A DNA stretch of 58,717 nt, the filler included, from Circinaria calcarea (lineage: Eukaryota), in assembly GCA_051942165.1 (NCBI GenBank). It is 4 parts of 4 records of this genome, joined end to end, with 100 filler letters (N's around TTAATTAATTAA, not from the genome) between each part and the next. Parts side by side here need not be neighbours in the genome. Positions count along the whole stretch, not along the records: positions 44,140 to 58,717 come from JAVECS010000416.1; 3 more parts are not named here. One strand, written 5' to 3'. Shown here piece after piece: positions 45,155-48,096 of this stretch. Positions within the stretch are counted from its first letter, which is position 1, and every line of letters starts with the position of its first letter. The notes below the pieces were generated by a model. The model was given only the letters and a program-made list of their open reading frames with translations. It had not been told where the DNA came from and made no database searches. The position numbers were made by a program, and so were the translations under genes.

Positions 45155-48096
45155 ATGGAACTATCGAATATCAAAAACCGTCTACGGAGTCTTAAAAGCT
45201 CCGTAAATGGTTCAAATGTAAAAACATTCGTCGCTGAAGGTTGTTTGACAGAAATTTACAACATTGATGAAGTATCACGAGCGCTTGCAGAGCCCATCTT
45301 CAACATTCCCAGTCACAAGCTAGAGAGCACTGCAAGAATTGTTCTGAATGAGGCTCCGAAAATATTTGCAATCCTGTTAGAGCTCCACTGCGAACAAGTA
45401 TTTGTCAGGTTTGTAGAAAGCGATGTTCTTGACTCGAGGTTGCCGCTTGATGAGGCAATACTAAGAAATATCATACCCGAGGCCGCGCAGAGGTTTGAAT
45501 GTCTTCAGTGGGAGTACCTTGCTTATCAATTTAAAAGAGGTCAATATCACAAGAAACTCTCTCAGAAGCAGGTCTTGCCTTATCTACAGCAAGAAAACAT
45601 TGGAGGTGGTGGGTATTCCACTGTCTATAGAGTTCTGATACCCCCGCAGCATCAGACTTTCATTGGTGATGCAAGTTCTAAGGTTAGGCATATACCATTA
45701 AGTAGTTTTTTCTGGCTAATTATGATTTTCAGGGGATAGAACTCATCCGCAAAGAGCTCCGGTCATTCGGTCAGGATGAGAAGGCGGAGGCCGAGTTGCT
45801 CTTCCTGTTAGGGAGTCTGAAGCACCCAAATATTGTCGAACTCTTAGCATCTTACACCCAAAACGGCATCTCGAACTTGCTTTTCCATCCAGCTGCTATG
45901 GATCTACATGAGTTCCTACTCCAGTCTGATCGACCAGTTGGCTTTATGGAAAGATTCACCTTCCATCAAGCGATGCACGGGATTGCAGATGGCCTGAGTT
46001 ATCTCCATAACTTCCGTGCGAGACCTGCCACTTCGCGAACGGGGTGTGAACCTCTCATGCATGGCTATCATCATGATATCAAGCCTCGAAATATCCTGGT
46101 TCGTGGCTCGGCTTTCATACTAGCTGACTTTGGTACTTCTAAGCTCAAAGATATAGACAAAGACACTAAGACAATGTGGAAAAATACTACCTTTGAGTAT
46201 GGGGCCCCAGAATGCAGGGATCCAGAGACATGGGTTGCTGGCACGGTCGGAAGAGCTCTGGACATCTGGTCTCTTGCGTGCGTCTTTTCGGAGATTGTAA
46301 CATATGCCCTGCATGGTTCGAAAGGTATTCTAGAGTTTCGAAGGCAGAGATTAAAGGAACACCTAAATGGTGGCATGACGCAATGTTTTCATGACGGCGA
46401 GAACCTTGATTCGGACGTTGGCATACATCTTGATGACTTGGAAGAGAACTCTTCGTCTGATCCAATACGAAAGCTCCTCTACCTTATTCGAACTATGTTT
46501 TCAACCGAGCCAATCAGTCGGCCAAAGGCTAATGAAGTCGAAAAAACTCTTTCTCATATAGCTGTTGAGGCGCTCTTAGATGCCGCTATCGAGTCTGTAC
46601 AGCATATGATAAATACTATCGAAGGAGCCACGGAAAAAAACCTCTACACTACGCAACTCCAAGTCGAAATGAATCGTATTTTGGCCTGGTCTGGTGCTTT
46701 AGGACTTAAATCTATATACAGGAGCCACAAACCGCATGACGAACAGGTATACGCTTTCTTTCCCGAGATCTGTGGGACTTTGAACTCTCTGTTCAAGGAT
46801 CTGAACACTGAATATGACTTCGAAAGTGTTGAAGATAGTCACGACTTCGTCCTGAGTAAGCTTCAGCATGCTAACCATGAGCTTTGCAAACGTCTGTCTC
46901 GGGAATGCAGAATATCTGCAGATGATACTTTTCGAATAATCACCGCCAATATGCCAGACCTCCGATCTCTACAGAGCATAGCCAAGCTTGACCTGGTATC
47001 AACGCAGCTGTACGATAATGCTAGTACTGGTACAGCTACCAAGTATATGACCCTTGTGTTAGAGAAACACGCGAAAGAAAAAGTTGTAAGTCATCGCATT
47101 GAGGCGTCACTTCTCCGTAAGGATCCTTCCACGGTGGATTTACTAGCATCTCCACCACTATGGCTCTACAGTTATGGCTACCGTGCTGGCGAAGAAAGAA
47201 AGACAGTCGTAGAGTTCATGCCATATTGGCAGAAGCAACACGACACGAACAGCGAGCAGTTCGAGGAAGTGATAGAAACAATGTTTTCTCGGGTTCAAGA
47301 ACTTGTAGAAGTGCTTAAACACAAGCCGAAACCTCCAGCTTTCCGGATCCTAGACTGCTTAGGAGCATTCCATGACGACCAGCGTCAAAACTTTGGAATT
47401 GTCTATGGGTATCCATCCGAAGATACTGCACCGGTCCGGCTGAAAAAACTTCTCCGCTACCGCAAAAGCTACAACTTCTACCCGGACTTAAGTCAAAAAC
47501 TTGTTCTTGCGAAGACTCTTATTGCTTGCGTTCAAAGCTTCCATACTTCCGGATGGCTTCACAAGAACATATCGTCGCTTAACATCCTGTTCTTCCAGAA
47601 TTCCATAAGTACCATAGCCGAGCTTGATTTGGCGAAGCCTTACATGGTGGGTTTTGACCACAGCCGTAAAAACGGAAAGGGTGAATACAGCCAGGGTGCT
47701 AGGTATGGTCAAGATCCAAGCTCTAGTCTAGCATTTAGACAAGCCTGCCAAGAATACCTCCACCCTCGCTATCGCCTTGGGATGATAACCGACATAAGAG
47801 ACTCTGCTTTCACAAGATCTTATGACTACTATGCGTTAGGACTTCTCTTGCTTGAGATCGGTACGTGGACCCCTCTGAACAAGATCTACGAAAAGTACCA
47901 AACGCACCCACCGGATGAGTTGCGGGAAGAGTACATCAAGTACTGTGACGAGCATTTAGGGAGAATAATGGGTCCAATATTCCAAAGCATAACAAGAACA
48001 TGTCTGCTGTATGATGGGGGAGAGAATGATGACATCACAGGGCAGCTCACGTTTCAAGCTGAAGTTGTTGATAAGCTTAACAAATGTGTATTCTAA
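45155..48096 (+). CDS. Ser/Thr kinase - HeLo-like segment - pseudokinase fusion protein (~963 aa, intron 45683-45732)
   Basis: Kinase motifs IGGGGYSTVY, IRKEL, HPNIV, HHDIKPRNILV, LADFG, YGAPE and DIWSL. HeLo-like LQVEMNRILAWSGALGL. C-terminal degenerate kinase WLHKNISSLNILFF, PYMVGFDHSR, YLHPRY and DYYALGLLLLEIG. Confidence 0.85.

Follow-up and report, generated by a model that had tools for sequence, protein, structure and literature searches.

Among the closest known counterparts of the protein considered here are MLKL and its upstream kinase RIPK3, and the HeLo-domain proteins of fungi. MLKL keeps VAIK230 and carries HGK and GFE (PMC6013482, in the part available to us). Known fungal HeLo death proteins are activated by amyloid templating or are borne on NOD-like receptors (NLRs), and the HeLo domain reaches the membrane through an N-terminal hydrophobic helix (PMC12881547 and PMC5485727, each available in part). 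The accessible text of a 2025 review (PMC12881547) describes HELL domains joined to kinase or pseudokinase domains, so that the MLKL-like half of what follows is already known; the portions of the reviews open to us name no kinase that activates the fungal MLKL-like HeLo-pseudokinases. In this article we analyse a stretch of 58,717 nucleotides from the lichen fungus Circinaria calcarea (the window), in which a single gene at positions 45155-48096 encodes a 963-residue protein joining a predicted active kinase to a trimmed HeLo bundle, brace helices and a pseudokinase. We hypothesize that this protein acts as the central switch in a fungal relay of four clustered genes for defence or regulated cell death, and not as its own executioner, and we give this reading a probability of roughly 0.45. 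Neither the kinase fusion nor the four-gene cassette was found in our literature searches, which returned no paper on either, the supplementary architecture tables of HeLo and NLR surveys being where the fusion could be listed; both are absent from the available portions of PMC10197012, PMC9262711, PMC12258605, PMC7885112, PMC9815663, PMC2553837 and PMC12365797.

The gene lies on the last of four contigs (G000:C416, window 44140-58717) that are joined in the window by runs of N with short spacers (14638-14737, 29361-29460 and 44040-44139), so that genes on opposite sides of a run are not neighbours. Two open reading frames, 45155-45739 and 45796-48096, are exons of this one gene on the plus strand. 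Exon 1 (45155-45682) encodes an N-terminal helical domain (residues 1-125) and the Gly-rich loop of the first kinase (GGGGYSTV, 45602-45625), and is followed by a predicted intron of 50 nucleotides (45683-45732) of the form GTTAGG...CTAAT...CAG, with GT..AG borders and CTAAT as branch site. The predicted splice joins the exons into 963 residues without a stop, and P0001, a database protein of the same length labelled as a hypothetical protein from a metagenome-assembled genome of Circinaria calcarea, is identical across the joint. An earlier note, a first reading of this DNA, had missed the intron, as it had the replacement of the β3 lysine by glutamate and the four-gene cassette described below.

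One database search yielded 121 relatives among 8000 scored candidates, most of them alignable with the query nearly end to end; those that are named come from ascomycetes, such as Cladophialophora, Exophiala, Lophiotrema, Trichophaea, Hymenoscyphus and Fusarium. Our first alignment holds 105 of 120 listed matches, fragments and other architectures being excluded, and a second set of 140 representatives was examined beside it. In a library clustered at 50% identity, a profile of the middle region alone has 539 matching representatives at E ≤ 0.001, of which 338 reach E ≤ 1e-10; the listing covered the best 150.

The first kinase (K1, residues ~141-455, 45575-46569) is a non-RD kinase in which, as the earlier note had recorded, every catalytic motif is in place: K183, E197, D291, K293 and N296 are kept, and HHDIKPRN, DFG and APE are found at 46069-46092, 46126-46134 and 46204-46212. 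Conservation is nearly complete: D291, N296, D308, F309 and P335 are invariant in all 105 aligned relatives, G310 and E336 occur in 104 rows each, and of the 49 rows that extend to position 183, 48 have the lysine (K183); the second set gives 113 of 115 for D291 and 53 of 55 for K183. From these residues we predict that K1 is an active Ser/Thr kinase. In PDB searches it does not stand out as close to RIPK3. Its sequence matches in the PDB are led by CDK2, ASK1 and NEK7, and its fold matches by TGF-beta receptor kinases, FES and IRAKs, with RIP3 at rank 10 (Z 23.9 vs 26.0); Foldseek with the whole model returned generic kinases only, and no RHIM was seen on inspection by eye. The helical domain ahead of K1 (45155-45529) is well folded in the predicted model and has no match in Pfam or Atlas; it is a candidate docking site for the microprotein or the CorA-like protein introduced below. 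By eye, a domain of this kind precedes K1-type kinases of several architectures.

Between the two kinase folds lies a bundle (residues 442-562, 46528-46890) with an LxxExxRLxxW motif (LQVEMNRILAWSGALGL, 46657-46707), which the earlier note had compared with HeLo. On its own the 963-residue protein falls short of the Pfam cut-off for HeLo (PF14479; E 0.0016, 18.8-19.3 vs 23.2 bits), and its relatives P0025 and P0031 exceed it. Half of 30 middle regions (15) match HeLo at E ≤ 0.5, with no other family matched by more than two, and R491 and W495 are retained in 104 and 103 of the 105 relatives. The three best PDB matches of the middle-region profile are the HET-S/HET-s HeLo crystals (E 0.006-0.04). 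When a model of residues 440-614 (predicted local distance difference test, pLDDT, 86) was searched by fold, HET-S ranked first of 48,161 chains (Z 9.7, root mean square deviation (rmsd) 3.8, 131 aligned residues); designed helical bundles tie with it (Z 9.6 and 9.2), so that the fold score alone is not decisive. A profile of stand-alone HeLo domains is weak on the fused middle regions, 31 of 105 scoring above 5 bits and the 963-residue protein 3.0, with no shuffled or reversed control above 5 bits; hhalign on cut alignments of stand-alone HeLo and fused middle regions joined the last helix only (probability 85). With profile and fold both placing HET-S at the top of the PDB, the middle region is a HeLo-family bundle. 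Of the two comparisons that the earlier note had called for, the one with HeLo was thus borne out, and in the one with the four-helix bundle of MLKL the direct likeness is weak: the MLKL bundle aligns with Z 6.3 (rmsd 4.2, 113 residues), a Z within the range of unrelated bundles. Foldseek with the middle domain found nothing at E ≤ 0.001. Behind the HeLo bundle, the full-length model (pLDDT 87, predicted template modelling score (pTM) 0.85) and a profile match place brace-like helices at residues 566-620 (46900-47064), with low confidence at 595-625.

The bundle does not begin as a HeLo domain should. A single helix covers residues 442-471 of the full model, and since solved kinases align in the fold searches to residue ~455 and HET-S from residue 449, the last helix of K1 also begins HeLo helix 1. 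The spacing from the invariant kinase Arg439 to the HeLo Trp495 is 56 in 60 of the 105 rows (range 48-61), close to the distance from Met1 to Trp in stand-alone HeLo-pseudokinases (W57 in P0121). Sequence likeness to HET-S starts at HET-S residue 25-29, past the membrane helix of HET-S at residues ~3-23; the fusion lacks an equivalent of some 45 residues found in the stand-alone bundle, and the kinase helix standing in the place of the HeLo N-terminal helix is amphipathic. In this zone, with rows lacking the Trp dropped, a 19-residue window with a Kyte-Doolittle value of at least 1.6 is present in only 4 of 103 fusions, whose mean is 0.89, vs 24 of 28 stand-alone proteins with a mean of 1.79, the latter being one subfamily and not a proven ancestor. 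The best window of the 963-residue protein reaches 0.92, and the second set contains one such window in 119 fusions; P0121, a stand-alone paralog in the same genome, retains its hydrophobic helix. The hydrophobic membrane helix of HeLo has been lost, replaced by the last helix of K1, which makes the release of a pore-forming bundle unlikely.

This result bears most directly on the model of the earlier note, in which K1 phosphorylates its own pseudokinase and thereby frees a membrane-breaking HeLo domain; proteolytic cleavage might come first. The model draws on the true HeLo homology, on the MLKL-like order of bundle, brace and pseudokinase, on the alignment with the MLKL bundle and on the conserved Ser/Thr of the activation loop. 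That alignment, however, has a score that unrelated bundles also reach, and besides having an amphipathic kinase helix where the hydrophobic one should be, the bundle is trimmed by about 45 residues, has 440 residues ahead of it and is the least conserved folded part of the protein (mean identity 29%, vs 50% for K1 and 44% for the pseudokinase), while a separate membrane protein travels with the gene. We regard a self-contained pore-former as improbable.

The C-terminal kinase fold (residues ~630-963, 47092-48096) is catalytically dead, to judge by its motifs. Glutamate (E670) stands for the β3 lysine in 102 of the 105 relatives and aspartate in the remaining 3, HKN stands for HRD (HKNISS, 47560-47577) and GFD for DFG (47650-47658). 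The two substitutions on which the earlier note had relied, HKNISS and GFD, are both present; as family traits they hold less well, in that the DFG Asp is missing in 104 of 105 rows but the third residue of the GFx triplet is Asp in only 36, and an Asp is kept at the HRD-Asp position in 22. That third residue is variable in the fusions, whereas GFE is found in 24 of 29 stand-alone fungal relatives. The activation segment carries a conserved S820 and, at 47689-47691, a residue 829 that is Ser or Thr in all 104 rows with a residue there, in 112 of 113 rows of the second set and in 28 of 29 stand-alone relatives; we consider it a candidate activation-loop phospho-site. Residues 549-963 match the stand-alone HeLo-pseudokinase family with an HHalign probability of 100 (E 1e-53), and the profile of that family finds HET-S over the whole HeLo domain (E 4e-11), IRAK4 (1e-9) and MLKL (3e-8). 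Taken alone, the pseudokinase of the 963-residue protein has no PDB match under E 0.01 and a weak Pfam match to DUF7580.

The proposal that RIPK3 and MLKL are here combined in one chain therefore stands in its architecture, an active kinase fused to an MLKL-like succession of HeLo, brace and pseudokinase with a candidate phospho-switch; in the PDB searches neither kinase domain is closest to RIPK3 or MLKL in particular. At least as good a counterpart of RIPK3 as the fused kinase is a separate kinase gene with TPR or ankyrin repeats, which lies beside all seven paralogs of the fusion in this genome.

Seven genes of the Circinaria calcarea genome have the kinase-HeLo-pseudokinase architecture, and at least six more carry this pseudokinase behind different N-terminal parts. 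A quick tree groups the fused pseudokinases in a single clade (33 of its 60 rows, SH-like approximate likelihood ratio test 97) and does not tell which stand-alone pseudokinases are nearest to that clade. The seven paralogs are spread over several of its subclades, where they group with sequences from other sources; given this spread, the cassette is old. Among the genes with other N-terminal parts, one (L029:1670-3583, minus strand, G000:C42) has the pseudokinase behind an LLDCCYS segment without a Pfam match, and an ankyrin gene nearby; the motif is reminiscent of a metacaspase or CHAT catalytic Cys. Another (L011:328-3402, G000:C506) combines a HeLo domain just above the Pfam cut-off with the pseudokinase and a long C-terminal extension in which, by eye, there may be a protease-like segment. 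At L031:573-5828 (G000:C1771) a helical-domain-pseudokinase gene is divergent from a kinase-ankyrin gene, and at L028:2072-8735 (G000:C976) genes for a NACHT-like-TPR protein, a helical-domain-pseudokinase and a K1-type kinase make up a three-gene NLR-kinase-pseudokinase cluster.

Three further genes complete the cassette in the window. The nearest, on the minus strand, encodes a microprotein detected by iterated profile (48320-48540; exon 1 48540-48439 and exon 2 48367-48320, read by eye, the end being approximate). Next to it, also on the minus strand, is a multi-exon gene for a CorA-like membrane protein (48935-50814, ends approximate), identified through Atlas (PF26616 0.93, PF01544 0.89) and a Pfam CorA match below the cut-off (E 0.082); two C-terminal hydrophobic helices were read by eye, and in the exons as read, with splicing by eye, no GMN motif follows the first of them. 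The last gene (51173-55218, plus strand) encodes P0156, a kinase-TPR protein of 1296 residues with a non-RD kinase (HGD), a Sel1-like segment and a TPR array. Its catalytic motifs are conserved and neither NB-ARC nor NACHT is among its Pfam matches; we treat it as the candidate sensor and upstream kinase. A TAF1 gene and a HET-domain gene, considered as further neighbours, were rejected, as they sit on other contigs beyond the N runs; the HET-domain gene (PF06985, E 3e-22) is located at 1867-3918 on the minus strand of another contig.

Linkage of the four genes was observed both within the genome and beyond it. When the same genome was searched with the neighbour kinase and 31 candidates were scored, 8 contigs had a total of 10 matches at E ≤ 1e-8; each of these contigs bears a HeLo-pseudokinase gene, fused in 7 and stand-alone in one. 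Every one of the 7 fused paralogs adjoins a kinase-repeat gene (6 TPR, 1 ankyrin), with the CorA-like gene at 5 and the microprotein at 6; contigs C129 and C112, having been picked through their CorA-like gene, were not counted as a test of linkage. A metagenome scan of the best 80 of 274 confirmed stretches resolved into 67 loci, 35 of them of at least 10 kb. Among these long loci, 22 fused ones have the neighbour kinase at 16, the CorA-like gene at 18 and the microprotein at 18, and 11 with a stand-alone pseudokinase have them at 3, 0 and 0, respectively; over all 67 loci, the corresponding counts for 28 fused loci are 17, 20 and 22. All four genes occur together at 17 loci, within 5-12 kb and in 12 orders or orientations. 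One database protein, P0238 (1799 residues), was examined as a natural fusion with the kinase-TPR gene and rejected: the N-lobe of the kinase-TPR kinase is missing from it and the record is single, and so we take it to be a merged gene model that shows adjacency only. P0106 is a public gene model that includes the microprotein exon with the kinase, and merged models of this sort may hide the cassette in annotations.

The partners are not attached to the same part of the fusion. The CorA-like and microprotein genes go with kinases of the K1 type: of four unfused K1 matches, three (C898, C656 and C687) have both and lack the neighbour kinase. The neighbour kinase, for its part, is found beside stand-alone pseudokinases at C569, C1771, L063, L064 and L066, with weaker cases at L082 and L089, and beside none of 5 K1-only loci of the same genome; it therefore follows the pseudokinase and not K1. 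The fusion would have originated in a single joining of a pair, kinase-repeat and HeLo-pseudokinase, to a unit of kinase, CorA-like protein and microprotein.

Two of these loci deserve description in their own right. At G000:C569 a stand-alone HeLo-pseudokinase gene with an intact hydrophobic helix and GFE (L026:4474-6123, minus strand) is divergent from a kinase-ankyrin-TPR gene (L026:6507-L027:2113, plus strand), and this is the cleanest candidate for a fungal RIPK3-MLKL gene pair. At G000:C898 (L100:1753-8168) a K1-type kinase is followed by a helical segment and a beta-rich tail that belongs to no Pfam family; microprotein and CorA-like genes are present and the kinase-TPR gene is absent, which we read as a different input domain on the same output module.

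From the arrangement of the cassette, we propose the following relay. The TPR array of the kinase-TPR protein would sense a non-self or damage cue and activate its own kinase, which would then phosphorylate S/T829 in the loop of the pseudokinase in trans, as RIPK3 does with MLKL. The resulting change would travel through the brace and the trimmed HeLo bundle and switch on or oligomerise the fused kinase; because the first HeLo helix is the last helix of that kinase, the lever would here act on the kinase, whereas in MLKL it sets the pore domain free. K1 would in turn phosphorylate the CorA-like protein, which would open and depolarise or kill the cell compartment; the microprotein would serve as a brake on, or a subunit of, this output. 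Both K1 and the neighbour kinase are non-RD, which is consistent with such a role, since in plants and animals this class has been linked with the recognition of pathogens (PMC2553837, in its available part). The broader form of the hypothesis, a widespread phosphorylation-driven death or defence pathway of ascomycetes that follows the logic of necroptosis with another executioner, having a TPR/ankyrin sensor kinase in the part of RIPK3, an MLKL-like pseudokinase whose HeLo lever gates a fused kinase and makes no pore, and a CorA-like channel without GMN that a microprotein keeps closed, we put forward as a tentative one, somewhat doubtful as it stands.

Who phosphorylates the pseudokinase is the step at which another order of events competes. 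The kinase acting on the pseudokinase loop might be K1 itself, working in cis or in a dimer after priming by the kinase-TPR protein, the output being an oligomer or a kinase signal to the CorA-like protein without a HeLo pore. Covalent linkage and the compact model (pTM 0.85) would favour this; at T323 in the activation loop of K1, 109 of 118 rows of the second set have Ser or Thr, so that K1 may be what the neighbour kinase phosphorylates; that kinase is missing from six long fused loci; and K1-like kinases adjoin stand-alone pseudokinases at C976, L069/L072 and L071/L073. The neighbour kinase is nonetheless found beside stand-alone HeLo-pseudokinases that have no K1, and beside 0 of 5 K1-only loci, and we judge this order of events unlikely.

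We stress that a number of observations weigh against the relay from the neighbour kinase through the HeLo lever to the CorA-like protein. Direction of the relay, phosphorylation, channel opening and cell death are all what we infer from the anatomy and the linkage. The neighbour kinase is missing from 6 of the 22 long fused loci (L041, where the gene is at the contig edge, L044, L047, L050, L075 and L076) and present at just 3 of the 11 long stand-alone loci, and many stand-alone loci show no kinase neighbour. Where a stand-alone pseudokinase is paired with a kinase that scores with the K1 profile (at the three places named above), K1-type kinases can evidently be natural partners of the pseudokinase. 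No CorA-like gene was found at 2 of the 7 fused loci of this genome and at 4 of the 22 from the metagenome, and the identification of this gene depends on Atlas features and on a Pfam match below the cut-off. Since the fusion arose once, the locus counts are not independent and Fisher values overstate the linkage; three pairs of loci are more than 60% alike. Finally, the bundle of MLKL kills without a markedly hydrophobic first helix, and so low hydrophobicity alone does not exclude action at the membrane.

The cassette need not serve a death pathway at all. It could act in ion or membrane homeostasis, in development or in hyphal compartments, or be a selfish toxin-antidote or allorecognition unit clustered for inheritance. 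CorA relatives are metal-ion channels, the killing helix of HeLo is gone, and tight clustering is typical of selfish units as well. Set against this, every part that can be recognised (HeLo domains, TPR/ankyrin arrays, non-RD kinases, and an unfused K1-type kinase joined to NACHT in P0111) belongs to the fungal immune repertoire, and divergent paralogs of the cassette are numerous; a role in allorecognition would be compatible with the relay. We hold a function outside defence and death to be rather improbable.

On the fungal side of the comparison with necroptosis, the cassette supplies candidates for the activating kinase (kinase-TPR or kinase-ankyrin), for the site phosphorylated and for a new executioner, and its family numbers at least 338 clusters at 50% identity. 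How far the parallel extends becomes testable with four genes.

Comparison with cereal tandem kinase proteins such as WTK3/Pm24, Rwt4 and Sr62TK brings out both a likeness and its limits. As in these proteins, two kinase folds share one chain and a partner gene is clustered with them; unlike in these proteins, the folds are separated by ~175 residues of HeLo and brace, and the partner, a kinase-TPR protein, has no nucleotide-binding domain. The parallel drawn by the earlier note with plant tandem kinase-pseudokinases accordingly keeps its two kinase folds and loses the rest, the folds not being directly fused and the partner having no NB-ARC or NACHT match, and we would treat it as analogy only. 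Taken mechanistically, it would make the pseudokinase or K1 a decoy or guard that binds a foreign effector, with release from intramolecular inhibition and with kinase-TPR as the downstream helper. The pairing of two kinase folds with a repeat-bearing partner is kept through rearrangements, as this would suggest, one genome holds seven deeply diverged paralogs, and cereal tandem kinase and NLR genes are clustered and co-evolve (PMC12365797, in its available part). The partner, however, has an intact kinase of its own and no nucleotide-binding match in Pfam, TPR arrays are the usual sensor part in fungi, and Ser/Thr kept in the loop of a dead kinase would suit a substrate more than a bait; a sensor of the cereal type is in our view improbable.

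Among the clustered death systems of fungi (NLR-HeLo, protease-gasdermin and het-Va/het-Vb), the cassette shares with its counterparts a TPR/ankyrin sensor beside a downstream module, in many paralogous clusters per genome. It differs from them in the proposed signal, phosphorylation as against amyloid templating, proteolysis or methylation, in having four genes, and in its candidate executioner, the CorA-like protein. That het-v might be the same system was ruled out, HET-Vb being HeLo plus TUDOR without a kinase in the accessible text of PMC9262711. The K1-only loci at C898, C656 and C687 have the same types of microprotein, CorA-like protein and kinase, to which the fusion cassette adds HeLo, pseudokinase and kinase-TPR.

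With HET-S/HELLP and the stand-alone HeLo/HELL-kinase and -pseudokinase proteins, the fusion has a homologous bundle, brace and pseudokinase in common. It differs from them in its extra active kinase and N-terminal domain, with no amyloid motif seen, and in being clustered with CorA-like and microprotein genes, neither of which is found at stand-alone HeLo-pseudokinase loci (0 of 11 and 0 of 6). With MLKL/RIPK3 and the plant MLKLs it shares the order of helical bundle, brace and pseudokinase, and with MLKL also GFx for DFG, a degenerate HRD, a conserved activation-loop Ser/Thr and an active kinase as likely partner. Unlike that of MLKL, its bundle is trimmed and internal, starting at residue ~442-455, and every full-length relative seen has an N-terminal domain and then a kinase ahead of the bundle; its pseudokinase lacks the β3 lysine and varies in the GFD Asp. 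Brace helices leading into a dead kinase fold recur in both, although the direct likeness of the bundle to the four-helix bundle of MLKL is weak and IRAK4 outranks MLKL in matches to the stand-alone family profile. The protein therefore resembles the RIPK3-MLKL switch in outline while standing outside MLKL itself, its bundle not being N-terminal and its β3 lysine being lost, and outside the pore-forming HeLo proteins, as it has no membrane helix; if our reading is correct, it would be a natural example of an MLKL-type switch whose output is an enzyme instead of a pore.

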